Source of the DNA: Methanobacteriota archaeon
GTDB lineage: Archaea; Thermoplasmatota; Thermoplasmata; SG8-5; JAGLSY01
Assembly: GCA_020697715.1 (NCBI GenBank)
Contig: JAEHCO010000001.1
Span: 2,222-66,221, forward strand
DNA: 64,000 nucleotides
Direction: 5' to 3'
How positions within the stretch are numbered: the first letter of the stretch is position 1; each line of letters starts with the position of its first letter. A model generated the notes under the pieces. It worked only from the letters and a program-made list of their open reading frames with translations. It was not told where the DNA came from and searched no databases. Positions 7,258 through 62,100 of the stretch are shown piece by piece. The translations under genes and the position numbers were made by a program.

Positions 7258-7369
7258 GGGCCCATGGCTTAGCCTGGTTATAGCGCCCGGCTGATATGGA
7301 ACAAACCTCAAAAAAGGGTTTGTTCTCTCCGATACCGGGATGTCTCGAGTTCAAATCTCGTTGGGCCCA
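7258..7369 (+). tRNA. tRNA-Ile (anticodon GAU) with 37-nt canonical intron (7297-7333) between positions 37/38
   Basis: GGGCCCA/TGGGCCC acceptor stem, D-arm GCTT…TAGC, anticodon stem CCCGG/CCGGG with loop CTGATA-[intron]-A, T-loop TTCAAAT, discriminator A; intron contains 9-bp helix GAACAAACC/GGTTTGTTC. Confidence 0.75.
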
Positions 7370-7524
7370 CTTTTCTTTTTTCCCGATATATCAAAGATTG
7401 GAAGCCAGCTTTAGTTTCGTATATTATATGTGATCATCTTTCTATTCCATACAAGGATAAAACGCTTATATCACCTATGAATACAACCCTGTCAATAGCG
7501 CACCCAGTGTTATAACATGCATAG

Positions 7525-28648: not shown

Positions 28649-31600
28649 TTAAGGAGTGTCTGGCTCCTCAGTTTCTTCAGCCTCTACCTCAGGTTCAGCC
28701 TCTGGTTCCGGTGTCTCTTCCGCAACCTCTGGTTTCCTTCCGCTTACTCCACGCTCTGCGAAGAAAACAGCCAGTGCTCCAAAGACTATGGCTGCAATCA
28801 ATGCTCCATAGGCCCATGTCGGGGTTTCTGAGACTGTTTCGGTTATTGTGACAGGGTCGGTAGTTTCATTGTTCCAAATGGTGTTGTTGTGATACTCGGG
28901 AATTGTGGTGTTGTGATACTCAGGAACCGTCTCATTGTTCCATATCGTGTTATTACTGTATTCAGTAACATTGTCCCAGACGGTTTGATTCACTGTCTGG
29001 TTATCCCATATTGTTTGATTGTTATATTCTATCACAATCAGAAAATCAGGATCCATATAGTCTGCCACGGTGTCATTATCAACATCTGATGGTATGGATG
29101 TATTGTCCAGTGGATCAAATCCACCAGCGATCTCTATGGCATCGTTCCAACCGTCCCAGTCATCGTCCAGATCTGCATTGTTACCGATTCCATCACCGTC
29201 TGTATCTGTATCCTCAGTTGGGTCTAGTGGGAGATCATCAGAGGTATCTGGAGTGCCATCATTATCATCATCTAGATCGGTTTTATCTGGATCCCCATCT
29301 CTGTCGGAATCCAGATTAACTGTTAGAATGAATGTTTGAGTATCGATTCCACCGTTACCATCGTCCACGATGATCTCAACATTGTAAGTGCCATCCTCAG
29401 TAGTGCTGGGTGTTCCGCTTATAATTCCACTGCTATCTATTGTAAGCCAACCAGTTGCGTTTCCTGCCAAGCTCCAGGTCGTTGATGGATCATCTGTGGA
29501 ATCATAATCCACCTCGTACAGTGCACCAGTGTTTGTAATTTCAATATCATTCGTTGTAATAATTGGTTCTGAATTTATCACTATGAGAGTGTAATTGAAG
29601 TATCCTTCTCGATTGATTGAATCTATTGCTGTGATATTGGCATAATATGTGCCCACATCTAAATTCTCTGGAGTTCCTGTCAGAACTCCAGAGTCTGAAA
29701 CAGACAACCAGCCAGTCATATTTGTATCAAGGTTCCAGTCAGTGATGGTGTTAAAGCCTGGATGAGGTTGAGGAGTACAATCAAGATCGATTACATAGAT
29801 CGAATCCTCCAAACATGTGTCCATAGCTGTAACTTGTGTAGTGGTCACTATTAGGGATATCGGCGTCAAGAAAGGATATGTTACCGTCTCCATAATGCCC
29901 CAGATATCAGTGAAATCCCAGCCTGTAAAAGTTAATTCCTGCTTCATCTCGATAGTGGTCTTGCCGATCCCGCTGGCAGTGCTCGGATTGCCGGATGTAT
30001 TGGTATCCCAGAAGCAGTTCATGGTGGAGTTAAGATCAATTCCTGCAAAGCCGCCAATTGAACTAGCTCCACTAGCATTTCCTGTGCTGTAGGAATTCAT
30101 AATAAAGCCAATAACATTATTTTGTCCAACAAAGCCACCGATCATACTACCGCTACTGGCATTACCAGTGCTATAGGAGTTCGTGATATCACCGCCATTA
30201 CATCCTACGAAGCCACCAACATTACCTGCAGTTCCGTTGGCACTGCTAGTACTGTAGCAGTTCGTGATAGCACCAATATTATATCCTACGAAGCCACCGA
30301 TCCACTGAACTCCGCTGATGACACCACCAGTGCTGTAGCAGTTCGTGATGGAGCCGTCATTATTATATCCTGCAAAACCACCAACATAATTTCCACTTCC
30401 AATGGCACTGGCACTAGCATCGCCAGAGCTATAGCAGTTTGAAATGGTGGCGCCGGGAGCATTTCGACCTACAAAACCACCAACATAATCACTAATTCCA
30501 AATATCCCACTAGCACTTGCACTGCCAGTACTGTAGCAATTCATTATAGAATCAGCATTCTGGCCAACGAAACCTCCAATATATAATTCGTACCCTATGG
30601 CATTCCCAATACTGTAGCAGTTTGTGATGGGGCCATCGTTCTGGCCAACGAAACCTCCTATCTGGATCGTACCGCTGGCACTGTCTGTGCTATAGGAGTT
30701 GGAAATATTGCCAGCATTACTTCCGATGAAACCACCTATATTACTATTGCCAGATGCACTGCCCTGGCAGTATGAATTGGTGATTGTGTTCGTATTCGCT
30801 CCGGCGAAGCCACCAACATAGGTTCCCCCGTTAGTGTTTCCGGTTGAATAGCAGTCGTCAATATTATTCTCATTGATTCCCACAAAACCACCTACATTAT
30901 CACCACTGCCTGTAACCATCCCAGTTGAATAACTGGAAGTGATCGGACCATGGTTCCAGCCCACAAAACCTCCGAATTTGTTACTTGTCGAATTTACTAG
31001 TCCCGTACTATAACAAATATCAATTATGTGACCAAAGGTGCTGTATCCCATGAAGCCGCCAATAGTTCCAGCCCCCGAAACATTACCTGTACTGTAACTG
31101 TTGGTTATTGAGCCCCCATTTCCACCAGATCCGGCAAAGCCCCCACTGTATGAGCCTGAAACATCCCCAGTGCTGTAGCAGTATGAAATGTCAGTATTAG
31201 TAGCCATATTGCCGATAAAACCGCCAGTTGATTGTGGGCCTGATACAAGACCTGTGGCATAGCAGTTGGTTATTTCTCTCGATGAATGGAATCCAGTAAA
31301 TCCCCCGGCATTATTACCGATGGCAGTAGCATTGCCAGTTGCATAGCAATTATTAATTGTGCTTTGACTTGTACCGACAAATCCTCCAACACGATCACCT
31401 GTTCCAGTTGCATCACCTGTACTAAAACAATTAACGATTATTCCATTGAAACCACTATCATGTCCAATAAAGCCACCGACATCATCTCGCCCATCGGCTG
31501 AGCCAGTGCTGTAACAGTTAGTTAATTGACTGTCATCATTCAATCCAATAAACCCACCAATCTCATCAGATGTACCAATTGCTGTTGCTTCGCTGTGGCT

Positions 31601-32359
31601 GTCAGAAACCGTACCATAATTTACTCCTAAGAGCCCTCCAACCTGATTGGAGCCCGAAGCGATACCAATACTACTGAGGTTTTGCAATGAGCCAGCACTG
31701 AGCCCGATCAAAACACCAATATAGACATTGCCAGTGGATGTGCCGTTGGAATTACAATCACTTATGATTGATGAACCACTTGAGGAACCAAGCAAGAGCC
31801 CTGCATAGCTGGTATTTGTATTTACTGAACCCTGACAGGAGATCCCCGTAATGATCCCTGAAGCACTACCGGCTAAACCTCCAACAGTATGATTACCTTT
31901 TATGTTAAGGCCAATGAAGATGATGTCCCTGATCTCGCTGTTTGGACCGGCATGACCAAAAAGTCCGACATAGCGTTGAGAGGAACGGTTGATGAAAAGG
32001 TCATTAATACTGTAGCCCTGGCCATCTAAGGAACCTTGAAAATCATCGACCCAATTACCAATTGGATCAAAACCCTCGAAGGCAGAACCATTTAAGTTCC
32101 ATGTTGAGGTCGCGCTGGCATCGATATCATTCATCAGAACATAATGGGCATTCAGATCCAGCTCCATTTCCTGAAGCTGGTTCACATTTGTTACCTGATA
32201 TGGATCTCCAGGAGTTCCGACACCCCCGCCTGAGAACAATGGGGCAGGAACTATCTCCATTCCCTCAACATCCGTAGTCATGTCCAGCATCACGAATGAT
32301 GAGCTGAAGATCATAGCTAAACTTATCAATAATGTAATAGATTTTTTCATATCCTTCAC
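28649..32359 (-). CDS. Giant surface protein with GLUG-motif repeat array, Ig-like domains, TSP3-like Ca-binding repeats, NxT sequon stalk, TM anchor
   Basis: 1236 aa; signal peptide; more than 20 repeats of VGGFVGxNxGxITNCYSTG type; C-terminal module paralogous to 26090-28591 and 32416-35610. Confidence 0.75.
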   Translation of the reverse strand: MKDMKKSITLLISLAMIFSSSFVMLDMTTDVEGMEIVPAPLFSGGGVGTPGDPYQVTNVNQLQEMELDLNAHYVLMNDIDASATSTWNLNGSAFEGFDPIGNWVDDFQGSLDGQGYSINDLFINRSSQRYVGLFGHAGPNSEIRDIIFIGLNIKGNHTVGGLAGSASGIITGISCQGSVNTNTSYAGLLLGSSSGSSIISDCNSNGTSTGNVYIGVLIGLSAGSLQNLSSIGIASGSNQVGGLLGVNYGTVSDSHSEATAIGTSDEIGGFIGLNDDSQLTNCYSTGSADGRDDVGGFIGHDSGFNGIIVNCFSTGDATGTGDRVGGFVGTSQSTINNCYATGNATAIGNNAGGFTGFHSSREITNCYATGLVSGPQSTGGFIGNMATNTDISYCYSTGDVSGSYSGGFAGSGGNGGSITNSYSTGNVSGAGTIGGFMGYSTFGHIIDICYSTGLVNSTSNKFGGFVGWNHGPITSSYSTGMVTGSGDNVGGFVGINENNIDDCYSTGNTNGGTYVGGFAGANTNTITNSYCQGSASGNSNIGGFIGSNAGNISNSYSTDSASGTIQIGGFVGQNDGPITNCYSIGNAIGYELYIGGFVGQNADSIMNCYSTGSASASGIFGISDYVGGFVGRNAPGATISNCYSSGDASASAIGSGNYVGGFAGYNNDGSITNCYSTGGVISGVQWIGGFVGYNIGAITNCYSTSSANGTAGNVGGFVGCNGGDITNSYSTGNASSGSMIGGFVGQNNVIGFIMNSYSTGNASGASSIGGFAGIDLNSTMNCFWDTNTSGNPSTASGIGKTTIEMKQELTFTGWDFTDIWGIMETVTYPFLTPISLIVTTTQVTAMDTCLEDSIYVIDLDCTPQPHPGFNTITDWNLDTNMTGWLSVSDSGVLTGTPENLDVGTYYANITAIDSINREGYFNYTLIVINSEPIITTNDIEITNTGALYEVDYDSTDDPSTTWSLAGNATGWLTIDSSGIISGTPSTTEDGTYNVEIIVDDGNGGIDTQTFILTVNLDSDRDGDPDKTDLDDDNDGTPDTSDDLPLDPTEDTDTDGDGIGNNADLDDDWDGWNDAIEIAGGFDPLDNTSIPSDVDNDTVADYMDPDFLIVIEYNNQTIWDNQTVNQTVWDNVTEYSNNTIWNNETVPEYHNTTIPEYHNNTIWNNETTDPVTITETVSETPTWAYGALIAAIVFGALAVFFAERGVSGRKPEVAEETPEPEAEPEVEAEETEEPDTP

Positions 32360-32415
32360 CCGGCTTCCTCTGAATGGGAATCGGGTGGCAAGATAATAAC
32401 ATTTCCGTAATATTG

Positions 32416-35400
32416 TTAAGAAATGTCTGGCTCCCCTTGCCCTTCAGCCTCAACCTCAATTTCAGCATCTGGCTCTGGAGATCCTTCCACACCCTCCGGC
32501 TTTCCACCACTTCCACCTCTGGTGAATCCAATAACAGCCAGCACACCCATAACGACAGCCGCGATGACCGCGCCCCAGGCCCATGCCGGGGTCTCGATGA
32601 CCGTGTCCTGTGTGGATGGATCGGCGGTGCCATTATTCCAAACAGTTGTATTATGATATTCTGGAATTGTGTTATTGGCCCATTCGGTCGTGTTGTGGTA
32701 TTCTGGAATTGTCTCATTGTTCCATATTGTTTGATTGTGATACTCTGGAACTGTCTCATTGTTCCAGATGGTCTGATTGTTGTACTCTGGAACTGTCTCA
32801 TTGTTCCAGATGGTCTGATTGTTGTACTCTGTGACAATGAGGAAATCAGAATCCATGAAATCCGCTATGCCGTCATTGTCATCGTCTGGTGGAAGATCAG
32901 TGTCATCCAATGGGTCAAATCCACCTGCAATTTCGACTGCATCGTCCCAGTTATCATTGTCATCATCATCATCCACCGAATCGTCAATTCCATCGCCATC
33001 ATTATCTGATACCATTGTCGGATCAAGTGGGAAGTCATCAGAGGTATCTGGAGTGCCGTCATTGTCATCGTCCAGGTCTGTGGTGTCCGGTTGACCGTCA
33101 TTGTCTGTATCCAGATCCACAGTAAGGGTGAATATCCGGGTGTCATTGGCACCGTTCCCATCATCAACTGTGACCTCGACATTGTAGATACCTGCCTGCG
33201 CATTGTTGGGTGTTCCGGACAATATTCCGTCATTGTCTATTGAAAGCCAGCCTGTGACATTACCGGACAGGTTCCAGGTCGTGGATGGGTCATCTGTGGA
33301 ATCATAATCGACCGAGTACAATGCTCCAGTGTTGGTGCTCGGAACATCTGGGGTTGTTATACTGGGGCCCATGTTCTCCACATCGAAGGTGTAATTATAG
33401 AAGCCTTGGTGGCCCACAGGATCCGTGGCCGTGATATTTGCATAGTATGTGCCTACATCCACGTTCAAAGGAGTTCCAGATATTACTCCAAATGAGGATA
33501 TGGACAGCCAGCCTGTGGCATCGGTTTCCAAGCCCCATTGCATCATGCCAGATCCAGGAAGAGGTTGAAGGGCTGAATCAAAAACGATCATGTAATTTGA
33601 ATCTTCAATAGCCGTGTCCATCATGGTCACTTGCCCTGTCGAGATAATTGTGGAGAACGGAGTCAGGTATGGGTATGAAGTGGTCTCCATAATGCCCCAG
33701 ACATTTGTGAAGTTCCATGGCGGGTTGAATGTCGCTTGCTGCTTCATCTCAGCAGTGGTCTTACCAGTTGCACCAGTAAGTCCGCCAGCGCCGATTCCTA
33801 TTCCTGTTACAGAAGTGTCGGTATCCCAAAAACAATCTATGATAGCGCCAGAATTGTTATATCCGGCAAAGCCACCCGAATTGAGATTACCGATTGCCCT
33901 ACCTGTGCTGTAACAATTCTTTATCGTGCCAATGCCCCATACATATCCTGTGAATCCACCAACCCGGTCATTACCAATAGCATTTCCCATGCTGTAGCAG
34001 TTCGCGATGATACCGTGGTTCTGTCCTGAAAAACCACCAACATATTCAATTGTTCCAATAGAGCTCCCAGTACTGTAGCAGGCAGTGATCGATCCAACTT
34101 CATTGATACCCACAAAACCACCAACATAACTATCTGTTCCAGTTGCACCCCCTGTGCTGTAGCTTGCCGTTATCGGTCCTTCGTTCCATCCTACAAAACC
34201 ACCAATATACATATGTCCACTGGCACTACCTGTGCTGTAGCAATTTGTGATCGTGCCGACATTGGTCATAAACCCCGCGAAGCCCCCAACATAATCAAAA
34301 ATTCCTGTGGCACTGCCAGTGCTGTAGCAATTTGTGACCTGGCTATTATCAATATATCCAACGAAACCACCAACATACATATCTCCATTTACAATACCGG
34401 TGCTGTATGAGTTTATGATCGTGCCGCCAATATTAAATCCAACGAAGCCGCCGACATAATGATCGATCGATGTGGCATCTCCTGTGCTGTAGCAGTTAGA
34501 GGCGGTATTGCCATTAAGACCGATGAAGCCGCCGACATTGTTAGCACCGCTGGCATCTCCTGTGCTGTAGCAGTTAGAGACGGGATTGCCATTAAGACCG
34601 ATGAAGCCACCGACATGATCATCACCACTGGCATTGCCAGTACTGTAGCAGTTAGAGACGAGATTGTTATTAAGACCGATGAAGCCACCATAATAATCTC
34701 CCGATGCAAAAGAGATGGCATTGCCGGTGCTGTAGCAGTTTGTTATAGTGCCACTGTTACTTCCTGTGAATCCTCCTGCATAATCATCGACCCCATTGGC
34801 ATCTCCCGTACTATAGCAATTTATTATGTCTGCCTGATTTTGGCCTACAAAGCCTCCTGTATACTCAACTGCGGTTGACGTGCCAGTACTGTAGCAATTG
34901 GAGATATTACCTACAAAATTAAGTCCTACAAATCCACCAGCGGTCCATGAGATACCATTTACAGAACTGGTACTGTAGCAGTAAGTGATAGTGCCACCAT
35001 TATTTGTTCCAACAAGCCCGCCAACATCAAAGATTCCAGTTACGTATCCTGTGCTGTAACAGTCAGTGATCGTGCCCATATTTCTTGCAACCAAGCCTCC
35101 AACAGTATCTTGGCCATCTATATCTGAATTGTTCAGGCCAATGCCAGTTAAGCTGGCTGTTTCGCTGATAATGCCAAAGAGGCCAACTTGATCTGTGGTG
35201 GAACGGTTTATTATCAAATTAATTATTTCAAAGCCCTGGCCATCCAGAGAGCCATTGAACTTCGATGTGGTATTACCAATTGGTGTAAACCCTGCGCCAG
35301 AATCCCAGATATTGGTAATTGTGGCATCGATATCATTGCCCAATACGTAACTTGCATTCATGTCCAAGCGTATGTAATACAAATCAAGAACATCCTCCAC

Positions 35401-35610
35401 AATGTAAGGGTTGCCAATACTACCATCTCCACCACCGAAAGCTCCTCCGGCAAGTGGGACAGGGCCGGGAACAATTTCCTCACCCTCTACATTCGCGGTC
35501 ATATCCAGCATCACAAAAAGTGAGCTGAGAACTAGCATAGAACTGATAATTAATGTGGCTGTTTTCTTCATGATATCATTTCCCCTATCAATGTGAGGGA
35601 AATGCACCAT
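32416..35610 (-). CDS. Giant surface protein, paralog of 28649-32359 (GLUG repeats, Ig-like, TSP3-like repeats, sequon stalk, TM anchor)
   Basis: 1064 aa; same architecture and near-identical C-terminal module; downstream flank ATAATAACATTTCCGTAATATTGTTAAG duplicated after both paralogs. Confidence 0.75.
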   Translation of the reverse strand: MVHFPHIDRGNDIMKKTATLIISSMLVLSSLFVMLDMTANVEGEEIVPGPVPLAGGAFGGGDGSIGNPYIVEDVLDLYYIRLDMNASYVLGNDIDATITNIWDSGAGFTPIGNTTSKFNGSLDGQGFEIINLIINRSTTDQVGLFGIISETASLTGIGLNNSDIDGQDTVGGLVARNMGTITDCYSTGYVTGIFDVGGLVGTNNGGTITYCYSTSSVNGISWTAGGFVGLNFVGNISNCYSTGTSTAVEYTGGFVGQNQADIINCYSTGDANGVDDYAGGFTGSNSGTITNCYSTGNAISFASGDYYGGFIGLNNNLVSNCYSTGNASGDDHVGGFIGLNGNPVSNCYSTGDASGANNVGGFIGLNGNTASNCYSTGDATSIDHYVGGFVGFNIGGTIINSYSTGIVNGDMYVGGFVGYIDNSQVTNCYSTGSATGIFDYVGGFAGFMTNVGTITNCYSTGSASGHMYIGGFVGWNEGPITASYSTGGATGTDSYVGGFVGINEVGSITACYSTGSSIGTIEYVGGFSGQNHGIIANCYSMGNAIGNDRVGGFTGYVWGIGTIKNCYSTGRAIGNLNSGGFAGYNNSGAIIDCFWDTDTSVTGIGIGAGGLTGATGKTTAEMKQQATFNPPWNFTNVWGIMETTSYPYLTPFSTIISTGQVTMMDTAIEDSNYMIVFDSALQPLPGSGMMQWGLETDATGWLSISSFGVISGTPLNVDVGTYYANITATDPVGHQGFYNYTFDVENMGPSITTPDVPSTNTGALYSVDYDSTDDPSTTWNLSGNVTGWLSIDNDGILSGTPNNAQAGIYNVEVTVDDGNGANDTRIFTLTVDLDTDNDGQPDTTDLDDDNDGTPDTSDDFPLDPTMVSDNDGDGIDDSVDDDDDNDNWDDAVEIAGGFDPLDDTDLPPDDDNDGIADFMDSDFLIVTEYNNQTIWNNETVPEYNNQTIWNNETVPEYHNQTIWNNETIPEYHNTTEWANNTIPEYHNTTVWNNGTADPSTQDTVIETPAWAWGAVIAAVVMGVLAVIGFTRGGSGGKPEGVEGSPEPDAEIEVEAEGQGEPDIS
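32657..32840 (-). repeat. In-frame 42-bp tandem repeat (about 4.4 copies, two identical) encoding 14-aa double-sequon units (PEYHNQTIWNNETV)
   Basis: Units start at 32657, 32699, 32741, 32783, 32825; 32741-32782 is identical to 32783-32824. Confidence 0.8.
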
Positions 35611-43187: not shown

Positions 43188-43337
43188 CTAAGATACAATA
43201 GATATAAAGTTTTACCTTTTATGACATAAGATGATAAATGAATAAAAATTATAAGTGGGCTGAGGCGGATCGAGAAAAATACGAAGCTTTTTTCGACATA
43301 GCCTCGGTTCACGATTAAAATCAAAAAGAAAACAAAG

Positions 43338-43479
43338 TGGGCCGAGGCGGATTTGAACCGCCGATCTTCGCCTTGCTGATTGCATGTCAGAAATTTCTGG
43401 CATGCAACTGTAAGGGCGACGTCAGATGGAGTGAAATGTAAGCGAACTTGCCATTTCAAAACCCCTAGACCACCGGCCC
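43338..43479 (-). tRNA. tRNA-Val (anticodon UAC) with two introns: about 34 nt in the D-loop and 35 nt at canonical 37/38
   Basis: Gene-strand 5' GGGCCGGTGGTCTAG…TGACGTCGCC-CTTACA-[GTTGCATGCCAGAAATTTCTGACATGCAATCAGCA]-AGGCGAAGATCGGCGGTTCAAATCCGCCTCGGCCC-A; exons give a canonical 73-nt tRNA; exact D-loop intron boundaries not resolved. Confidence 0.6.
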
Positions 43480-43591
43480 GCGGTATTTCGGGGATTGGCG
43501 AAGTGGTATTTATTTCTGTGGTTTGATATGGTTTTTGTCAAAACCTTTAAAATGATGGTGGATATCACCTTAACATCCACAGCAAGAGTAT

Positions 43592-43724
43592 GCGAGGGTA
43601 GCTAAGCATGGTCAAATTGACCTGCAACCACTGACGAATCAACAGCGTTTGCAATCAAGGCTAACGGCGATAGACTCAAGATCTATTCCTTAGTGGTTCG
43701 CCGGTTCAAATCCGGTCCCTCGCA
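43592..43724 (+). tRNA. tRNA-Leu (anticodon CAA, type II) with about 48-nt non-canonical intron in the D-loop (about 43617-43664)
   Basis: GCGAGGG/CCCTCGC acceptor stem, D-loop AGCATGGTCAAA, intact anticodon arm ATAGA-CTCAAGA-TCTAT, 13-nt variable arm, T-arm GCCGG-TTCAAAT-CCGGT, discriminator A; 6-bp helix GGTCAA/TTGACC spans the exon-intron junction. Confidence 0.6.
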
Positions 43725-43876
43725 CCTTTTTATTTTTTGAGATAGCAGACTGTATTTTACACATACCCAGCAAGAATATGAAGCGAACGAGCAGGGTCAC
43801 CCGAGTTTTCTTTTGCAATGGAATACTTGTTCTTTTGGAGGGTGACCCAGCACAGTGAGCGTAAAAGAAAAGGCTT

Positions 43877-43900
43877 CCGTTTGAATCCGGTCCCTCGCAC
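43877..43900 (+). repeat. Direct repeat of the tRNA-Leu 3' end (20 of 20 nt identical: AATCCGGTCCCTCGCACCTT), att-like remnant
   Basis: Second copy 173 bp downstream of the tRNA; T-arm upstream of the repeat is degenerate, so not a functional tRNA. Confidence 0.5.
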
Positions 43901-43901
43901 C

Positions 43902-44612
43902 TTATTTTACCATATTTTGTATCATCTCAACAAGCCTATCGATGATGACCTCATTGGCTTTTTCTCCGAATTCCTTCGATGCAAGCTGGGGATCTCCCAT
44001 GACACCAGTTGGGAAGTATTTTTCAGGGTGCTTGAGTATCATAAAAGGTGGGAAATTTGGATGATTGGATTCGGCAGTTCCCTTTACCAGATCAGGGCGT
44101 ATGGCCATCACCCGCGAGGTCTCGATCATGCCCGCATGCCCGTCATTGACAGGTATCTCGATCTCGTTCATCGTGTACGCGATATCATAATCCGAAAGTA
44201 CCATCAGATTAATGTCCTCATCATGGGCTTCCAGAACAGTCTCACCTGCAAGCTTCAGCGCGGTCATGTGAGTTCGTCCAGCATGACCGGATAGGACCAC
44301 GATATTCCTGAATCCCATCCTGATCAACTCGGACAGGATGTCCTCCATCATCATCCGCAGAGTTTCGAATCTGAGTGTTATGGTTCCCGGGAAGTTCTTG
44401 GTGCTCGAACACTGTCCGTATTTCAAAATAGGTAACAGATAGGCTCCCAATCGCTCTGAAACTACTTCCGCAACATATTGGGGTTGCAAACAATCGGTGG
44501 ACAGGGGAAGATGTGGCCCATGCTCCTCTATCGCACCCAGTGGTAATATCGCGATAGAGCTCTCATTCACTTTTTCCCTTATCTCTTCAGTGGTCATTTC
44601 CTCCAATAACAT
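43902..44612 (-). CDS. Creatininase-family amidohydrolase (possibly ArfB-like formamide hydrolase)
   Basis: 236 aa; creatininase signature ILPLGAIEEHGPHLPLSTD and metal-binding His/Glu/Asp pattern. Confidence 0.8.
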   Translation of the reverse strand: MLLEEMTTEEIREKVNESSIAILPLGAIEEHGPHLPLSTDCLQPQYVAEVVSERLGAYLLPILKYGQCSSTKNFPGTITLRFETLRMMMEDILSELIRMGFRNIVVLSGHAGRTHMTALKLAGETVLEAHDEDINLMVLSDYDIAYTMNEIEIPVNDGHAGMIETSRVMAIRPDLVKGTAESNHPNFPPFMILKHPEKYFPTGVMGDPQLASKEFGEKANEVIIDRLVEMIQNMVK

Positions 44613-51424: not shown

Positions 51425-51982
51425 ATGGGAGATAAAATAAGGAGTTTCATCGCTGTCGATATAGGCCGCGTTCCTGAGCTCTTGAAATTCGTCAAGGCTT
51501 TGAGAGATATAGATTCAGATCTCAAGTTCGTAAAGCTGGATAACCTTCATATAACCTTGAAATTCTTGGGTGATATCGATGAGGAATTGGTTCCGGAGAT
51601 CGAGAGCTTTATGAGGAAGGCAGTTGAAGGACATGGACCTTTTGAAATGGATCTGAAAGGTACTGGTGTGTTTCCCAATTACAAAAGGATATCAGTGGTA
51701 TGGGCCGGCCTTGAGAAGACAGAGGTCTTGGCCGATATCGCAGATAAGCTGAACAACAACTTGACCATGATGGGGTTCCGTCAGGAAAGAAGGGGATTCT
51801 CACCTCATATCACGATCGCGAGAGTGGGGAACACTCTGGATACGATCGGCTTGCCGGAAACCGTCAAAAAGTTCGAGAACTTGGAGTTCACCACACTTAA
51901 GGTCGAGAGGATCATTTTGAAGAAATCCGAGCTCACACCTAAGGGTCCGATCTACTCGGATGTTGTAACTGTTGAGCTATAA
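51425..51982 (+). CDS. thpR: RNA 2',3'-cyclic phosphodiesterase (2H phosphoesterase, LigT/ThpR)
   Basis: 185 aa; two H-x-T-x motifs (HITLKFLG and HITIARV) at the expected spacing. Confidence 0.8.
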   Translation: MGDKIRSFIAVDIGRVPELLKFVKALRDIDSDLKFVKLDNLHITLKFLGDIDEELVPEIESFMRKAVEGHGPFEMDLKGTGVFPNYKRISVVWAGLEKTEVLADIADKLNNNLTMMGFRQERRGFSPHITIARVGNTLDTIGLPETVKKFENLEFTTLKVERIILKKSELTPKGPIYSDVVTVEL

Positions 51983-53367: not shown

Positions 53368-54120
53368 TCATATGTTCTTTGCGGATATACCCTTATCATC
53401 TATGTTGCATGATAAGATCTTAGTTTTCTCTGGGTGATTCCTCACCTTCCTTATCAGCAGATTCCTTGTGAAAGTGGAGCCCTCTCTGAGCCTCTCCAGT
53501 TCTATTGTGATATCCACTATATCCTGGACACCACTTTCCACGCGATTGTCAAAAACCCCTTTCAGCATCGTGACGAGGGCTATGCCATTATTTAGTTGAG
53601 TATGAGCCTTGATGGTCCTTATGGCGGAAAGCACATCAGCCTCATCATAATACTCTAGGAAGAAATCCAGAGAATCCAATACGATCCTAAATGGTGGTTT
53701 GAGCTTCGATATACCATATGTGAGCGTGGTCAGGAAATTGACATCCATGCTTTGTTCAGCCTGGGCGGCATTGAATTGCTTGATATCTCGCATTTTCAAT
53801 CCTTCCTGGCGATACTTGCTAACTTCCAGGTTCTTGGCCAGAACCTTCTCATAATACATCTTGCCGATATTCACGACCCTGATATCCTGCTTCCACCCGA
53901 ATTCACCCATGGCGGTCTTAACAGCCTCATCACTTTCAGTGGTGGAGAAATAGGTAACGTTCTCATTTCCTATTCCAGCTGCTGCAAACTGCTTGGCAAA
54001 TAGCTCGACACCGGTTCCGGGTATACCGGTGATCAATATCGTACATCCTTTCGGAACACCATCCATCAGGGATTTATCCAGCTCCTTCACACCTATGCTG
54101 GTAGTTTCGATCAAACTCAT
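53368..54120 (-). CDS. KaiC/RecA-like ATPase domain protein (third of triad)
   Basis: 250 aa; P-loop-like GIPGTGVELF (non-canonical) and KaiC-type fold; 4-nt overlap with upstream gene. Confidence 0.7.
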   Translation of the reverse strand: MSLIETTSIGVKELDKSLMDGVPKGCTILITGIPGTGVELFAKQFAAAGIGNENVTYFSTTESDEAVKTAMGEFGWKQDIRVVNIGKMYYEKVLAKNLEVSKYRQEGLKMRDIKQFNAAQAEQSMDVNFLTTLTYGISKLKPPFRIVLDSLDFFLEYYDEADVLSAIRTIKAHTQLNNGIALVTMLKGVFDNRVESGVQDIVDITIELERLREGSTFTRNLLIRKVRNHPEKTKILSCNIDDKGISAKNI

Positions 54121-54689
54121 TCACCCCCTATGGTTATCGTGGTATCACATACCAACTTCATCATATTGGATATCTCTTCAGTGCTGAACTCTTCCATTGT
54201 GAAGACCATGGAATAGGCATCCTTGGCTCTCAGATTGTTTATGAATATATGCAAGAATTCGGACAGGATCTTCATATTATTGTGAATACCCAGGGCATTT
54301 ATGGCATCTAAAACAATGACATTGTTCTTGCCATCTGATTTCCTTATGAGGTATTCCACCTTCAGCATGATGTTCTCCAGCATGGTGGGGCTTTCCACAT
54401 AGAGCACGTTCTTGTATTTCTTGGCCCCTCCGACCATGATATGGGAAACACAGTCCACGAAGTAAATATTGGTAAGATCGATCTCCAGGATCTTCAAGAC
54501 ATCGATTATTGAATGTGATGGAATAGCCACCGTGATGTAGATGACATTCAAATTCTTCTTATTGGCGAAGATATCCACTATTCCCCTTATGGCATCGAAA
54601 TAACTATCACTGACTATCTTCAGGTTTATAGCGGATGAAGGTGGGAGCTCATGAAGCTCATCTGCCAGATCGCCAGGTGATTTGATCAT
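54117..54689 (-). CDS. KaiC/RecA-like fold protein lacking recognisable Walker A (second of triad)
   Basis: 190 aa; matches C-terminal part of KaiC-like fold (NVIVLDAINALG) without P-loop; 4-nt overlaps on both sides. Confidence 0.5.
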   Translation of the reverse strand: MIKSPGDLADELHELPPSSAINLKIVSDSYFDAIRGIVDIFANKKNLNVIYITVAIPSHSIIDVLKILEIDLTNIYFVDCVSHIMVGGAKKYKNVLYVESPTMLENIMLKVEYLIRKSDGKNNVIVLDAINALGIHNNMKILSEFLHIFINNLRAKDAYSMVFTMEEFSTEEISNMMKLVCDTTITIGGE

Positions 54690-55438
54690 AGACCACCACC
54701 GCCCTTGAGCAATGGAACAAGTAATACGCCCGCGGGTGTCAGATCCAGAACATATTTCGCTCTGGAATGTACTGTTCCTCTCATTTTCACCACTTGCAAT
54801 GTCCTCAGAAGGTCTCCCCTCCGCTCATAATTCCCCATAAGGACGATACCATCCGCGATGGCTTCCTCCACCCCGTAGAGCGAGTACCTGTCGGCAGATG
54901 GTGATATTTCGGATATCAGAAGACTGGTGCAACCCCTGGTAGAAAGAGCTTTTCCTATCTTCAATATGAATTCCCTTATCTTCTCCTCTGTTTTCAATCT
55001 GTAGCAAACGGAGGTTATGGAATCTATGACCAATCTTTTGACAGAAAGCTCATCCACGAGGTTACCCAGTGCACGAACCAGAGTGTCGACATCCTCCAGA
55101 CTGAACTCCACATTTGTCAAACCCAATCTCTCATAGATGACTGGCATATCGACGAATGCCAGTTTTCCTGTTTTTATCAGGGATTCCTCAAAGAAATCAT
55201 ATGGGATGACATTCGTGGTAAGTTTCTCAGATGATTCTGTAACTGAAACAAAAAGTGAATTCTCATCGGCCAGAGCCCCATGCACTAAAAATTCAAGGGA
55301 CAGTGTGGTCTTTCCAGTACCGCAACTGCCTGTGAACAAAATGGTATTTCCTCTGGGTATTCCTCCATTTAGAATATTATCCAAACCATCTATTCCTGTA
55401 ACGCAACGTTCTCTCTCAATGATATTTTCTGAGGCCAT
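54686..55438 (-). CDS. KaiC/RecA-like ATPase (first of triad; canonical Walker A)
   Basis: 250 aa; GIDGLDNILNGGIPRGNTILFTGSCGTGKTTL Walker A, Walker B (RLVIDSI), KaiC-type C-terminus. Confidence 0.75.
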   Translation of the reverse strand: MASENIIERERCVTGIDGLDNILNGGIPRGNTILFTGSCGTGKTTLSLEFLVHGALADENSLFVSVTESSEKLTTNVIPYDFFEESLIKTGKLAFVDMPVIYERLGLTNVEFSLEDVDTLVRALGNLVDELSVKRLVIDSITSVCYRLKTEEKIREFILKIGKALSTRGCTSLLISEISPSADRYSLYGVEEAIADGIVLMGNYERRGDLLRTLQVVKMRGTVHSRAKYVLDLTPAGVLLVPLLKGGGGL

Positions 55439-55591: not shown

Positions 55592-58500
55592 TTGAGCGAT
55601 TCCACACTTTACCTATGCCCATTTTGTGGCGCCTTCATAAACGAGGAGGCCGAGGTTTGTCCCAATTGCAGCAAACCATTGGAAGAGGAGGTGGAAGGTG
55701 GATTCGAGAAAGAGCTGGATGATCTTATAGATGAAGATCTCAATGCCATGTCAGGAAGTGAATCCTGTCCCAGATGTGGAAAGCAGCTGGAAGAAGGATC
55801 ATTAGAATGCCTGGATTGCAATATGAAGATCGAGGATGGACTGGAACCCGCATCTGAAGGAGAAGAGGAAGGAGTGGCTCTATTCCTTTGTTCAGGATGT
55901 GGGGCTTTTATCAATTCGAATTCCAATGAATGCCCCAAATGTGGTATTTCACTTGATGATGAGGCTGAAGAAGAACATGATTTTGTAGAATATGATAATG
56001 AATTGCTGGATCTCCTTGTTGAGAATGAGCCAGATGAAGAAGATGAGCTTATCCTGGAGTTGGATAGCATAGATGATCCAGAAGATCTGATATCGGTCAT
56101 TGACAAGATGCCGGATATTGAAGATGAAGAGCTATTCGATGATGAACCAGATATCGTACTTGATCTTGATCTGGCAGATGACGATCCGGAAGGCGATCTT
56201 CTTCACATGAACATTGATGATGAAATAGAGAAGACCAGGATAGTGGAATCCATTAGCGAAAGGGTAGCCGGAGAAGTGGCTATCGAAAGTGATAGTGGAG
56301 ATGAGATCATGCTCTGTGGAGAGTGTGGAGCATTTGTCTCCCAATCTTCAAAGGAATGTAATGTTTGTGGAAATGACATAAGACCTGGCAGCCATCTGGC
56401 TATTGAAAAAGATGAGATCCCCTCAGAGAATGATGGCGAAAATACAGAGACCGCCCTGAGGTCCATACTTGGGATATTGGATGATGTCATACTTGATCCG
56501 GATCCAATGGCAGATCATGAGGATGATATTGGCATATGCCAGAAATGTGGAGCTTTCATACCTCATGGCGAGAGTGCGTGTCCCGTATGTCATGCGGACA
56601 AAAAGAGTCTTCCAGATATCATATACACGGAACTGCCTATAGATGATCATGATTCTATGTCCATTTGCGGGGATTGTGGAGCTTTTGTCAAATCCGATTC
56701 AGATACATGTAATGTTTGTGGAGCCAAGGTCGATGCCGATATGCTAAGATCCATAGAGCCAGATGATGTCTTGGAGATGGGGATGGATGCGGATGACCCA
56801 ATGGATATTCTGAAAAAAGCACTGGGTGTGCTGGAATTACGAGATACGACACCAGAGGAAAGGATCGGTGGAGAACTGGATCTATGTCCGGATTGTGGTG
56901 CTTTCGTCTCAGCTAATGCCAAATCATGCTCCATTTGTGGCAGCGATCTGATCCAGGGCACGGATATAAGCCTGGATGATGGCATAGTCATGGATCTGGA
57001 TGATGGATCGGTCATTCTTTCAGACAGTGTTTGTCCCAATTGTGGCTCCAAGTTCGGGGTCGGGGCAGGAGATTGTGAGGTTTGTGGCTTCACATTCCTC
57101 GGTGATGAAAGTGATCATGACGAGAAGGAAATGTCCTATGAAGACAGGGTGGACATATCGGATATCATAGAATTCGAGGTTCCAGAATTGACAAAGGAAA
57201 GCGCTATCGATCACCTCAATGAAATGGAAGATGATATGGATGATCTAATTCTGGATGAAGTAAAGCCTGAATCATCTGCCGAGGTTAAGAGTGGGGAACT
57301 ATCCAATGAAGAAAAGCTGGCCAGGATAGAAAAGGCCTATGAAGAAGGGCAACTTAGCAAGGCCAATTACATAATCAACAAGGCCAAGTTCTACGGACTT
57401 GTTCAGGAAATGAATGAGATAGAAGATGACCTGGATGAGCTTTTGATAGATATTGATGAGACGATGGCCGAGACCGTGGAAGTGCCGACCGAAGAGGATG
57501 AAATAGAAAGTCTGGAGCTTGGAGATCTTCATCTGAATATCGATCCAGATGCTCAGGACGACGAGGATACCCAGCCAGATGTGGAAATGGAATATGATGA
57601 TCTGTCCCTTTCAGAAGATGACATCAAAGAAGGCATCCATGACGGAAAATATGATGATATCATCGAATTCGATGATCAGGATCTGGATCTAACCCAGGAT
57701 GATACTTATCAGGAAGATCTGGATGAGCATATTGAAACTTATGAGGAAGAGGATGAGACCTCGAAAGAGGATGAAACCTCGGATGAGGATGTCATATACG
57801 AAGAGGTCGAGGTCTATGTGGACGAAGATGGCCAGGAAATAGAATATGAAGAGGTCGAGGTAAATGAGGATGACATCGAAGAGTATGAGGAGGATGTCGA
57901 TGATCCTGAAGGAACCGATTTAGATGATCATGACCCCGAGGAAACATATTTCGAAGAGGAAGACGAGATCCATGTACCCTTCAGATCACATGCCATGGCG
58001 GAGACCACTGGAGGACCGCAATATCTCAATCATTCCGGATGGGAATATGGTGTCATCGCATCACTTCTTACATCCCTCTTCTATGTCGCGCTTTCCTCAT
58101 ACATACCCATCAATCCCATATCATTGGCCATAATATTTGGCGTGATACTTATCTTCGCCTTCATAATGATGGTCACATCAAGATCCATATTCATGAAAGG
58201 CGATCTGTACCGTGGTTCCGTGTTCATGATAGGCGGAGTGATAATTTCTTTCATCCTGCTCCATTGGTTCGCGGATATCATGATCGATGATCCGATGGTG
58301 GACAAAATGCTACTGTCGATAGGAATAATGATGATCGGTATAGGAATAATCTGGATAAGGGGCAAGATCCGATATATCCATCTCTGGTTATCCGGCACCA
58401 TATTCCTATTTCTGTTCTCCATAGGAGAGCTTTATTATTTCGAGCAATGGGCCTATTCCCCCATCCAGCCACCAGGAGCGATAGTGGCTGGGATCGGGAT

Positions 58501-59152
58501 ATCTCTGATCGTGGCCAGTTCCATACTGCTGGCCTATGAGAGAAGTCTACACACTTCGATAGAGACGGAGATCGTTCGAGGAGATATGGACTATCTCAAT
58601 AAGAATTACAAGAAGGCATTGCATTCCTATGATAGGGCGCTTGAGAAAAGCACCCTGAAGACCGAATCCGCATTGAAGGCAGATGATACCAGGGAATACG
58701 ATGTCCCATGGTACAGTAAAGGTGCGACCCTGATATTGATGGGTAATTTGAAAGAAGGAATTGAATGTCTGGATATGGCTCTATCCATAAATCCCAATAA
58801 CGAGGTCGCATGGGTGAGCAAGGGAAATGCCTATTCAAAGCTCGGGGACATGAGCAGTGCTTTGGAATCATATAACAATGCATTGATCGCGAACCCCAGA
58901 TACATAATAGCCTGGAACAATAGAGGTAATGCATTTGCCAGGAAGGAGAATTATATCGAAGCCCTGAAGAACTATAACAGGGCGATCAAGCTGGATCCAG
59001 ATTATAAGGACGCGTGGATCAATAAGGGCTATGTCCTGATGAAGATGGGAAAGCAGGATGAGGCGCTCAAATGTGTGTCGATGATAGGGGAGAAAAAGAT
59101 GGGACAGCATGGAGCAGCCAGTACCAATGGCAGTACTAAGGCCTCTGCCTGA
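55592..59152 (+). CDS. Giant membrane protein: eight N-terminal CxxC-N(9-11)-CxxC zinc ribbons, acidic linker, about six TM helices, C-terminal TPR repeats
   Basis: 1186 aa, TTG start; ribbons such as CPFCGAFINEEAEVCPNCSKP, CSGCGAFINSNSNECPKCGIS, CGDCGAFVKSDSDTCNVCGAK; hydrophobic block (…VIASLLTSLFYVALSSY…); four or more 34-aa TPR units. Confidence 0.7.
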   Translation: MSDSTLYLCPFCGAFINEEAEVCPNCSKPLEEEVEGGFEKELDDLIDEDLNAMSGSESCPRCGKQLEEGSLECLDCNMKIEDGLEPASEGEEEGVALFLCSGCGAFINSNSNECPKCGISLDDEAEEEHDFVEYDNELLDLLVENEPDEEDELILELDSIDDPEDLISVIDKMPDIEDEELFDDEPDIVLDLDLADDDPEGDLLHMNIDDEIEKTRIVESISERVAGEVAIESDSGDEIMLCGECGAFVSQSSKECNVCGNDIRPGSHLAIEKDEIPSENDGENTETALRSILGILDDVILDPDPMADHEDDIGICQKCGAFIPHGESACPVCHADKKSLPDIIYTELPIDDHDSMSICGDCGAFVKSDSDTCNVCGAKVDADMLRSIEPDDVLEMGMDADDPMDILKKALGVLELRDTTPEERIGGELDLCPDCGAFVSANAKSCSICGSDLIQGTDISLDDGIVMDLDDGSVILSDSVCPNCGSKFGVGAGDCEVCGFTFLGDESDHDEKEMSYEDRVDISDIIEFEVPELTKESAIDHLNEMEDDMDDLILDEVKPESSAEVKSGELSNEEKLARIEKAYEEGQLSKANYIINKAKFYGLVQEMNEIEDDLDELLIDIDETMAETVEVPTEEDEIESLELGDLHLNIDPDAQDDEDTQPDVEMEYDDLSLSEDDIKEGIHDGKYDDIIEFDDQDLDLTQDDTYQEDLDEHIETYEEEDETSKEDETSDEDVIYEEVEVYVDEDGQEIEYEEVEVNEDDIEEYEEDVDDPEGTDLDDHDPEETYFEEEDEIHVPFRSHAMAETTGGPQYLNHSGWEYGVIASLLTSLFYVALSSYIPINPISLAIIFGVILIFAFIMMVTSRSIFMKGDLYRGSVFMIGGVIISFILLHWFADIMIDDPMVDKMLLSIGIMMIGIGIIWIRGKIRYIHLWLSGTIFLFLFSIGELYYFEQWAYSPIQPPGAIVAGIGISLIVASSILLAYERSLHTSIETEIVRGDMDYLNKNYKKALHSYDRALEKSTLKTESALKADDTREYDVPWYSKGATLILMGNLKEGIECLDMALSINPNNEVAWVSKGNAYSKLGDMSSALESYNNALIANPRYIIAWNNRGNAFARKENYIEALKNYNRAIKLDPDYKDAWINKGYVLMKMGKQDEALKCVSMIGEKKMGQHGAASTNGSTKASA

Positions 59153-62100
59153 CCTGCATGATGCATATTCCGATCATGGTTGCCAGGATCAATGAGAAGA
59201 TATTACTGAACTCGTCAATAATGATTATATCGACCGATGCCACATCACTATCCGGCAGAAGCATGTAGCCACTGGAAGTAGTGTAATTCAATAGTGCCCA
59301 ATTATCAACAGGGCCAGCAAGTGGCGTCGCATTGACTGTCACATTGATGAATATCGCGTATGAGCCGGGCGCGATATTTGTGAAGTACCAGCTAATATCC
59401 TGACCCAGTATTGTCGAAGGAGCTGGAACCGCGCTGTCGAAGATAATTCCAGAGGGTAATGTGTCATTTATCCAGACATTGCCCGCATTGGTCGAGCCAG
59501 TATTATTGTAGAAGATGGTGTACATGATGGTGTCATTGGCATAGGCGGTTGTGACATTGGCGGTCTTCTGGATATCTATAACAGGCCGCTGGCAGGTGAC
59601 ATTGGCCCATGAGGTCTCGGTTCCCAGAGAGTATGTCAAAGTGGCGGAATTGGATAATAATTCCAGATCGGTCGCATTGGCATTCACCTGCACCTCGATG
59701 GTTATGAGATTCGTACTCTGTCTGGGAATCTGGGTGAAGGTCCAGCCAAGATCCTGGCCAACTATCGTCACGGGCAATGGATTGGCGACCACATAATCGA
59801 CATTCGCTGGAAGTACATCATCTATCTGAACATTCCAGGCCTTTCCCAAACCTGTATTATTGTACCATATCTCGTAGGTTATCAGATCGCCTGGTTGGGC
59901 AGTGGTCACATTGGCTGTTTTGGATATGGACATATTGGGGAGTTTAGGTGCCAGTGGATCAATGGGGTCAGAAAGCTCTATTTCTTCTAGCCCAGTCGAT
60001 CGGGATGACCTTGCGGCCTCGGCATTGTGCCTGATACTATTGGTCTCATCCTCCATACCCAGCCAGTCTGACATTTCGATGGCGATGGAGATATCAGATT
60101 GCCTGGATATTCCAAGAAGTCCAAGGGGCACGCCTACCTCAATCCGGGATAGATCATTGGCCCCGGATGCTTTGCCGAGATATGTCCATGGAGTGCTCGC
60201 GGACATCTCCTCATATGAGTATATCTCGCTGGATAGTATCTTATTGTATTTGCCAGTTATAAGGATTAAATGGTCAGCTCCAAGCTGACCATTTAAATAA
60301 TGGCCTGTTTCGATATCATCATCCGCGTCTATGTATATCAACAGATGATCCATACCTTTTCTCTCAATGTGCCTCACAGGGCCGATATAACGGCTTATGA
60401 ACCTGCCAGAATAATTCGCATCATAGCTCTGGGGGATGGTGGTATTGAGCCAATTGTCAACACCTCCAGCATCGTGATCCACTACACCGTCGCCATCACG
60501 ATCCCCATTAGAATTCGCATCATCGACACCGTCATTATTAAAATCATGAGCATATGAGCCATCAGGGCCATCCAGCACATCCGGGACACCATCATTGTCC
60601 GAGTCCAAATTAGGAGAAGTCTGAGTGACATTTTGAGCCGATGGTGTTGATCTGATCCTCAGCACTGGTATTGCGGATCCTCCCATGGCCACCCCACCCA
60701 CGGATGTGTAGATGTTCAGCTCATCATCCATATTCATGCGGTAATCCCTGATATCCACATTCCTGTTCAGGAACTTCAGCTTTGCAGGATCCTTTCCTGG
60801 AACTACCTGATCATTGGCCGCATCGATATTTGGAGGTGTCGATTGCCAGTCTCCAAATGCTCCATCTATCGTCGTACCAGATGGTTGGCCATAGTGTTTG
60901 AGAGATGGTGCACTTACTATCATGTCCAAGTTGACGGTGTCGATCATGCCCACATTCAAAGGCATGAGGCCGATGGTCTGGCCATTCTCTGTCCCGGTCA
61001 ATGTGGATGAAAGAATAAGTTGAGTGATTTCAGACGGCGATAGTGGCATGGGGTCGAATAATTCCAAATGAAGGACCTGGCCGTCCACCTGCATCGAGGA
61101 TAGGCCAACCACCTCGTCAATGACAGGTTCTATCAGGCCATTATCATTCATATCCTTGTATAATGTGAATTGTGAAAGAATATCCGGACTGGATGTTCCC
61201 AATATACGGAAGTCGAGTGAGTCGATCTCCACCTCATCCTCATAGCATACGAGTTCGAAGGAGCAAGAGAGAACATCATCTCTTGCCAGTATATCATTCG
61301 AAGGGTCAGTGATCGACCTTATAGACAGGGATGCGGTATTGGGGATCATTATGCCATCGGAAGTGTCTGTATTTCCTTCGGAATCACTTGTCATGACAAG
61401 GACTGATGGTGACTGGTCTGCCAGATCGCTCATGGCCGTTCTCAGTTCGATCTTATCTCCACTCACCTTACTGGATACCGAGGATATATACATGAACCCA
61501 CTCCAGTCATCAGGATCATGATCATTATCGAATCTCAATAGTTCAGATGCTTCCACATGATTATCATAACCATGAACATCTATCAGGACATCGGCGCCCA
61601 GATTGTCGATGGAATAGCCAGTGCGATTATTCCCATCTGCATCTAGGAAGATATAGATGGAATCCACACCACTGCCATTCGCACTACCACCTTCCATCAT
61701 GGTCCCGTCAACTTGTAGGAAAATGTCAAGATATGGATGATCCAATGAAAATCTAGTATCTACCAGATCTATATCAGGGTTTATGACATCCGATACTTCA
61801 TCGGCATAGGATGTGAACTTATTCCAGTCACTGAAAGCTCCGTCTATCGAGATATCTCGTGTGTCACCATTATTCATATTCTCGGTGAATATCGGCACAT
61901 AGAGTATCAAAGATATCACAATGACAATGGATAAAAAGCCGATCTTCCACCTACGTGCTTTTTGACGATTCCTTCTCAATATAGCCATATCCTGCTTTCT
62001 CTCAACCAAGGAATCACCATTTATGAAACCATCGCCATTAACTATGCCAGAGCCGTTGACCAGGCCATTCGTTAACCCATTGGTCAAGCCATTGGTACGA

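Follow-up and report, generated by a model that had tools for sequence, protein, structure and literature searches.

The window, by which I mean the whole 64,000-nt stretch of DNA that was analysed, very probably contains (I would put it at about 0.9) a functional gene for an archaeal tRNA-Val(UAC), from the transcript of which protein enzymes would remove two introns. One of the introns lies at the canonical site in the anticodon loop and the other within the D-loop. With both removed in silico, the product is the same as a tRNA-Val found without introns in a relative, and the pairing at the ends of the D-loop intron is maintained by covariation. A tRNA with two introns so placed is of a kind already known; the lineage of the host makes it mildly unexpected.

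The gene and its spliced product

The complete gene, recognized from the sequence and by a scan for the acceptor stem and T-arm, occupies 142 nt (43338..43479) on the minus strand and consists of three exons and two introns. Read from 43479 to 43338, the precursor begins with GGGCCGG-UG-GUCU and ends with GGCGG-UUCAAAU-CCGCC-UCGGCCC-A, and the acceptor stem (one G.U pair) and T-arm are perfect. A preliminary description of the region had the coordinates and the length exactly, with the strand unstated, and was also right in the lengths and positions of the two introns (35 nt at 37/38 and about 34 nt in the D-loop).

Exon 1 (43460-43479, 20 nt; GGGCCGGTGGTCTAGGGGTT) supplies the 5' strand of the acceptor stem, U8 and G9, the 5' strand of the D-stem, and the D-loop through U20a, and its sequence is shared without a difference by the window and five related loci considered below (L029, L022, L039, L026, and L041). 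The D-loop intron (43426-43459, 34 nt; TTGAAATGGCAAGTTCGCTTACATTTCACTCCAT) follows at position 20a/21, separating GGGGUU from CUGAC. Exon 2 (43409-43425, 17 nt) runs from C21 through the 3' strand of the D-stem, G26, and the 5' strand of the anticodon stem to A37 of the loop, and includes the anticodon UAC (TAC in the DNA, 43410-43412). The anticodon arm, CUGAC-G-UCGCC-CUUACA ... A-GGCGA, is broken after A37 by the canonical intron (43374-43408, 35 nt; gene positions 72-106), which has A37 and A38 on either side and lies one base 3' of the anticodon. Exon 3 (43338-43373, 36 nt) provides A38, the 3' strand of the anticodon stem, the variable loop, the T-arm (GGCGG TTCAAAT CCGCC), the 3' strand of the acceptor stem, and the discriminator A73. 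CCA is not encoded, A73 being followed by CTT. I rejected a split or permuted tRNA gene, since the three exons are colinear within the single 142-nt locus.

An A/T-rich box (AAATAAATA, 43507..43515, minus strand) lies 28-36 nt upstream of where the mature tRNA begins and is a candidate archaeal TATA element, hence a putative promoter of the gene; its aligned counterpart in L022 and L026 is TTTTATACAA. Directly 3' of the gene is a T-rich tract (CTTTGTTTTCTTTTTGATTTT, 43317..43337, minus strand), which may serve as an archaeal oligo-T terminator. The divergent neighbour, on the opposite strand, is a gene for tRNA-Leu(CAA).

Splicing in silico at the sites predicted from bulge-helix-bulge (BHB) motifs, 20|55 and 71|107, yields a 73-nt tRNA that ARAGORN, run without its intron mode, calls tRNA-Val(tac) with a normal cloverleaf, in agreement with the isotype and anticodon that had been proposed. 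The spliced molecule has the structure of an archaeal elongator tRNA-Val(UAC): its acceptor stem has 7 bp, the D, T, and anticodon arms are all present, the anticodon loop of 7 nt contains U33, and the T-loop is TTCAAAT. It is identical at 73/73 positions to the intron-less tRNA-Val of the syntenic locus L041, which, together with the synteny of the window with L029, L026, and L022, indicates orthology to bona fide tRNA-Val genes. An intron-less and nearly identical relative, L013, scores 66.1 bits against the Rfam tRNA family RF00005. Excision of the D-loop intron restores a normal D-arm (GUCUAGGGGUUCUGAC), the same as that in genes that have no intron at this place (L041, L026, L015, and L021). 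Position 21 of the product is C in place of the usual A, and the intron-less relatives have C as well. The gene structure, the BHB folds, the conservation and covariation of their parts, and the identity of the product with an intron-less orthologue are all matters of direct observation.

Run with its intron option (-i), ARAGORN draws both the window gene and that of L029 as a tRNA-Arg(UCU) that has just one intron, of 53 nt, and a long variable arm. The drawing requires a mismatched D-stem, an A.A mismatch in the anticodon stem, and a long extra arm, and the same mode miscalls L026 as Ser and L022 as Cys; moreover, it is the reading with two introns, not tRNA-Arg, that reproduces exactly a gene existing without introns. 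I regard the chance that the locus encodes tRNA-Arg as negligible.

Other identities were considered for the introns themselves. Self-splicing group I and group II introns are on the order of 200 nt or more; those considered here are 34 and 35 nt and match no Rfam intron family even at E<=10, and so were rejected as such. Also rejected was an intron-borne C/D box guide RNA of the type in tRNA-Trp, for which the criteria were C (RUGAUGA) and D (CUGA) boxes, a guide region, and an intron at least about 60 nt long. Neither intron of the tRNA-Val gene has a C box, the sole CUGA lies inside a hairpin stem, and the Rfam C/D matches in the region fall elsewhere and far below threshold.

Predicted splice sites and their conservation among relatives

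The target of the archaeal endonuclease EndA is a 4-bp helix between two 3-nt bulges on opposite strands, each cut between its second and third bases. The 37/38 intron is consistent with this rule. Its motif has an hBHBh' geometry, slightly relaxed by a U.C in the central helix (C32-A35 against UCAG of the intron, 3/4 pairs), and its bulges read CA|G and CA|A. On the exon side the outer helix is the anticodon stem (5 bp), and on the intron side it is UUGCAUG/CAUGCAA (7 bp), extended by CAGA/UCUG. The hairpin that the preliminary description had reported in this intron is real, though not perfect and not without a loop, as had been supposed: it consists of 8 bp, a C.A mismatch, and 4 bp, closed by a 4-nt loop.

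The BHB fold at the D-loop junctions, on which the earlier proposal of an intron there had been staked, is likewise present. The scan for BHB motifs found in it the geometry of the 20/21 class: a central helix of G15-G18 with C49-C52 (GGGG/CUCC, 4/4 pairs, one G.U), a 5' bulge UU|U, a 3' bulge AU|C, and a 7-bp intron helix, UGAAAUG/CAUUUCA. The exon-side helix is of 2 bp only (A14-U and U13.G) and competes with the D-stem register.

The folding of the whole precursor is in keeping with both motifs. Its minimum free energy (MFE) is -58.4 kcal/mol (z = -4.66 relative to 200 dinucleotide shuffles), and the centroid structure contains both BHB-like motifs plus intact acceptor, D, anticodon, and T stems, the D-loop part appearing as 4 bp, a 3-nt bulge, and 7 bp. 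When the D-loop insert was shuffled, a BHB of like quality arose at the exact junction in about 0.2% of cases, and at any nearby junction in about 2.4%, the latter with a relaxed threshold for the intron-side helix. Shuffles equalled the quality of the motif at the 37/38 junction in 0.15% of cases. The junction in the D-loop could not be fixed by ARAGORN, which accepted as tRNA-Val nearly all of the excisions enumerated there. My own BHB scanner also gave shifted registers and spurious long-range "introns" from continuous helices, which were sorted out by comparative data. It is this comparative evidence that I take as decisive for the predicted splice sites.

Relatives were sought by scanning a collection of genomes with a pattern for the T-arm and the 3' strand of the acceptor stem, which gave 29 loci, mostly from metagenome-assembled genomes (MAGs) labelled Thermoplasmata. 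Synteny with the window was seen in three of the loci, L029, L026, and L022, each with a gene for a GFO-family oxidoreductase, the pair of tRNA genes, a creatininase-family gene, and a KaiC/TPR gene; their neighbouring proteins are 96%, 91%, and 74% identical, respectively, to those of the window. Homologues of the creatininase-family protein led to additional syntenic loci. The homologue at locus L037/L038 (89% identical) lies in a different gene neighbourhood, in which tRNAs are absent.

The closest relative, L029, has a tRNA-Val gene that is also 142 nt long. Flanking DNA is 79-87% identical between it and the window, and the exons are identical at 73/73 positions. The two genes differ at nine positions, all of them within the 69 predicted intron positions and none within the 73 exon positions, a distribution with a probability of about 0.0015 by chance. 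The differences are at gene positions 21, 24, 41, 45, and 46 in the D-loop intron and at 72, 80, 85, and 93 in the 37/38 intron, the first in each case (21 and 72) being the first base of the intron. One change in the D-loop intron is compensatory (A24-U46 to G-C), and the pair 80/93 in the other intron goes from a C.A mismatch in the window to a U.G wobble in L029.

Besides L029, five further relatives are interrupted in the D-loop at this junction, by introns whose helices differ and covary, and three are not. A pattern requiring the exact flanks of exon 1 and exon 2 found no match in metagenomes, and a looser one found seven more tRNA-Val(UAC) loci interrupted in the D-loop. In all, 12 tRNA-Val(UAC) genes from genomes and metagenomes have a D-loop intron at this junction. 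Pairs 1-3 of the intron helix are maintained in 12/12 of them, with two to four types of base pair at each position, and pair 2 of the central helix covaries with the exon base as G-C, U-A, or C-G. The helices of the D-loop intron are in this way kept by covariation.

The same comparison bears on a register in which the D-loop is cut one base inward on each side, exon 1 ending at 21 and exon 2 beginning at 54, with gene and introns otherwise the same. The product would be a 75-nt tRNA with a 10-nt D-loop (AGGGGUUUUC). Within the window this alternative is well formed: the central helix (GGGU/ACUC) runs to 4 bp between two bulges of 3 nt each, the helix on the intron side to 6 bp, and that on the exon side to 3 bp. 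Its U19-A48 pair is present in the MFE structure but not in the centroid. Only 20|55, however, which would give an 8-nt D-loop (GGGGUUCUGAC), reproduces the D-arms of L041, L026, L015, and L021. Cutting at 21|54 would leave an extra base that is U in the window but A in L029, where every other exon base is identical; the intron helix falls to 2 bp in L029, and the central helix falls to 3/4 pairs in L022 and L039. Because its product is unlike that of L029 and matches no intron-less orthologue, and because its motif weakens in L029, L022, and L039, I rejected the shifted register, to which I would allow a chance of about one in twenty, and retain 20|55.

It might also be that the D-loop insert has inactivated the gene, leaving a decaying tRNA-Val pseudogene while another copy supplies the decoding of valine UAC codons. 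Part of the tRNA's 3' end is indeed repeated 67 nt downstream (43253-43270), a sign of past rearrangement at the locus. A pseudogene is nonetheless hard to reconcile with exons that are 100% conserved relative to L029 amid diverged introns and flanks, with an insert that keeps its BHB geometry and covaries across 12 genes, or with an insertion retained at the same junction in six syntenic relatives. I consider decay very improbable, and the locus as most likely an active gene with two introns.

Intron content varies considerably among the relatives. The tRNA-Val genes of the window, L029, and L040 have both introns. Those of L022, L039, and L042 have the D-loop intron only, that of L026 has only an anticodon-loop intron, unrelated in sequence, and those of L041 and L043 have none. 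L044 (JGI Ga0209536_100000077) has a 93-nt intron near 25/26, and the metagenomic L033 and L034 have D-loop plus T-loop introns. The tRNA-Leu gene of L040 (a Logan ERR15087788 contig) has no D-loop intron, with one intron in the 3' strand of the anticodon stem and another in the T-loop (about 59/60). The sites used across these relatives are accordingly 20a/21, 21/22, about 25/26, the 3' strand of the anticodon stem, 59/60, and 37/38. Since intron content differs even among close syntenic relatives, the suggestion that the gene might be a useful phylogenetic marker holds only weakly: the gene points to an archaeal genome in which tRNA splicing is flexible, but is no stable character of a clade.

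Neighbouring tRNA genes, repeats, and detection

Three tRNA genes were found in the window, and all are interrupted; of their four introns, two lie in D-loops. The tRNA-Leu(CAA) gene (43592-43724, plus strand, 133 nt) has a 49-nt D-loop intron at 21/22 (43616-43664). Its motif is a relaxed HBh', with a central helix GGUC/GGCU that includes two G.U pairs, bulges AA|A and AA|C, an intron helix UUGA/UCAA, and an exon-side helix of only 1 bp. The spliced 84-mer is called tRNA-Leu(caa), and an intron-less orthologue of the same length in L043 is identical at 78/84 positions. The intron is conserved in L029, L026, L022, L039, and L041. The third gene, for tRNA-Ile(GAU) (7258-7370, plus strand), has a 37-nt anticodon-loop intron with a somewhat relaxed BHB and scores 49.4 bits with Rfam.

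Standard finders overlook most of this. ARAGORN at its default settings reports no tRNA in the window, and at a lowered threshold it gives about 148 calls, which are noise. The only Rfam match in the window at the gathering score is tRNA-Ile, placed at 7258-7369. The tRNA-Val gene is unmatched both at the gathering score and at E<=10, and the tRNA-Leu gene, missed by ARAGORN, obtains 19 bits from Rfam, below the gathering score. The failure with tRNA-Val is explained by the stepwise drop in Rfam score with intron content among relatives: 66 bits with no intron (L013), 55 bits with the D-loop intron only (L022), about 49 bits with the anticodon-loop intron only (L015 and L026), and no match with both (L029). 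Both the tRNA-Val gene and the neighbouring gene for tRNA-Leu escape default finders altogether. A genome from this lineage will therefore seem short of essential tRNAs unless it is annotated with BHB-aware archaeal search modes.

The surroundings of the tRNA genes are rich in repeats. The partial copy of the tRNA-Val 3' end noted above (43253-43270, minus strand) is an 18-nt direct repeat of 43335-43352 (ATCCGCCTCAGCCCACTT, one mismatch). The downstream flank of L029 joins the end of the tRNA-Val gene directly, and the window therefore has an insertion of about 82 nt, bounded by the repeat, which looks like the att-type scar of an integrated element. Beyond the tRNA-Leu gene, a 20-nt exact direct repeat (43884-43903 with respect to 43709-43728, plus strand; AATCCGGTCCCTCGCACCTT) comprises the 3' end of the gene and four trailing bases; it starts about 160 nt downstream of the gene, is present in L029 too, and has a comparable counterpart in L026.

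Between the two copies of the tRNA-Leu 3' end is a conserved inverted repeat (43783-43860, plus strand), with a 9-bp G+C-rich stem (GGGUCACCC/GGGUGACCC), interrupted pairs that extend it, and a 37-nt U-rich loop. Over 90 nt it shares 79% identity with a stretch of L035, an unrelated 633-kb metagenome contig, where that stretch adjoins a tRNA-Val gene with a D-loop intron. The stems are conserved between the two, with one compensatory pair, and the loop has diverged. No Rfam family matches the inverted repeat, which could be a small RNA, the end of a MITE, or a recombination site.

The divergent tRNA-Val/tRNA-Leu pair (43338-43724 in the window) appears as an inverted cassette in L026 (880-1609) and L022 (1465-1865), relative to the flanking GFO-family and creatininase-family genes; the window and L029 share one orientation. 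In L043, a unit of about 69 nt occurs twice in tandem (2391-2528, plus strand) upstream of the intron-less tRNA-Val gene, each copy with a 5' end like that of tRNA-Val (GGGCTGTTGGTCC / GCGCTGGTGGTCC) followed by a hairpin, GGAAAAGGCAGGCTTTTCC. Elsewhere, the window encodes very large predicted surface or repeat proteins at 28649-35610 (minus strand) and 55592-63953. Two of them are GLUG-motif/He_PIG proteins, 1236 and 1064 aa long; the others are a zinc-ribbon/TPR protein of 1186 aa and a DUF11 protein of 1605 aa. At 53368-55438, three genes for KaiC-family ATPases lie next to one another.

The probable course of splicing, and comparison with other archaea

The 142-nt precursor would fold such that each pair of intron-exon boundaries, that at 37/38 and that in the D-loop, lies within a BHB motif. 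In the D-loop, G18, G19, and their two 5' neighbours would pair with the 3' end of the intron. EndA would then make four cuts, each after the second base of a 3-nt bulge; an RtcB-type ligase would join the three exons, and CCA would be added after transcription. Removal of the D-loop intron would release G18 and G19 for the elbow between D-loop and T-loop, which could be formed only after excision because these bases are held until then in the central helix. A Pfam scan of 38 long ORFs of the window found neither a tRNA-intron endonuclease (tRNA_int_endo) nor RtcB. The window encodes at 51425-51982 (plus strand) a LigT-like 2H phosphoesterase ("2'-5' RNA ligase" family; PF02834, 4e-30); this family acts on RNA ends with 2',3'-cyclic phosphates, for example the products of EndA. 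The enzymes, the chemistry of cleavage, and the expression of the tRNA are presumed here by analogy with the established archaeal pathway, whose enzymology has been reviewed (PMC4090602, PMC6379350), and in which BHB splice sites have been described as transplantable (PMC4090602).

The syntenic relatives L022 and L026 were deposited as "Thermoplasmata archaeon", and protein homologues at 67-72% identity carry the name Thermoplasmata or "Ca. Proteinoplasmatales archaeon SG8-5". According to reviews, euryarchaeal tRNA genes have no more than one intron, at the canonical site, along with narrow alpha4 or alpha'2 endonucleases, and the enzyme of Thermoplasma acidophilum is alpha'2 and narrow (PMC4090602, PMC6379350). 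In my searches of the literature I came across no account of non-canonical tRNA introns in Thermoplasmata. It is possible, though I hold it only tentatively and with the odds against it, that non-canonical and multiple tRNA introns have proliferated, with fast turnover, in a Thermoplasmata-affiliated clade near the SG8-5/"Ca. Proteinoplasmatales" MAGs. If so, the splicing endonuclease of the clade would be of broad substrate specificity, and endonuclease and introns would have co-evolved independently inside the "cluster II" euryarchaea, a group credited until now with nothing beyond narrow alpha'2 enzymes and single introns at the canonical site. The presence or absence of each intron in an otherwise identical gene offers a clean natural series for the study of tRNA intron gain and loss, useful also for asking what type of endonuclease the lineage possesses.

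Interruption of a tRNA gene by several introns is well documented in Thermoproteales and Thaumarchaeota (PMC3218864, PMC8450103), and 20/21 is among the listed non-canonical sites (PMC4090602). The tRNA-Pro(UGG) gene of Pyrobaculum islandicum is interrupted at 25/26, at 37/38, and again at 56/57 (Sugahara et al. 2007/2008, as cited in PMC4090602). Insofar as these multi-intron tRNAs are described in that secondary account, the Thermoproteales resemble the present case in having several BHB introns in a gene, non-canonical sites that include 20/21, and gain and loss between close relatives; they differ in being hyperthermophilic Crenarchaeota with (alpha-beta)2 endonucleases, whereas the relatives of the window are labelled Thermoplasmata and the window has a GC content of 46%. 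The intron in tRNA-Thr(UGU) of Aeropyrum pernix also lies within the D-loop and is removed in vitro by EndA (Hirata et al. 2011, PMC3241643, as cited in PMC5829648). By that citation, however, it is a single intron in a crenarchaeon, and its cleavage needs a loop of EndA specific to Crenarchaea. Thaumarchaeota too have many non-canonical BHB introns, for which dedicated detection models were required (tRNAscan-SE 2.0, PMC8450103); they are mesophilic and of a different phylum.

The tRNA-Glu(UUC) of Methanopyrus kandleri, which has a D-loop intron at 20b/21 and a canonical intron at 37/38 (Kaneta et al. 2018, PMC5829648), is like the tRNA-Val described here in coming from a euryarchaeon, in the same pair of sites, with the D-loop intron just before position 21, and in the dependence of intron removal on motifs of the BHB family. 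The mature tRNA-Glu has been seen by RNA-seq in M. kandleri (PMC5829648). The isotype and the lineage differ. The D-loop motif of M. kandleri is a relaxed HBh', poorly cut in vitro by alpha'2 enzymes and by the enzyme of M. kandleri itself (PMC5829648). The D-loop motif of the tRNA-Val gene, by comparison, has both 3-nt bulges and the 4-bp central helix, with an exon-side helix of 2 bp, and therefore might be cut even by a narrow endonuclease.
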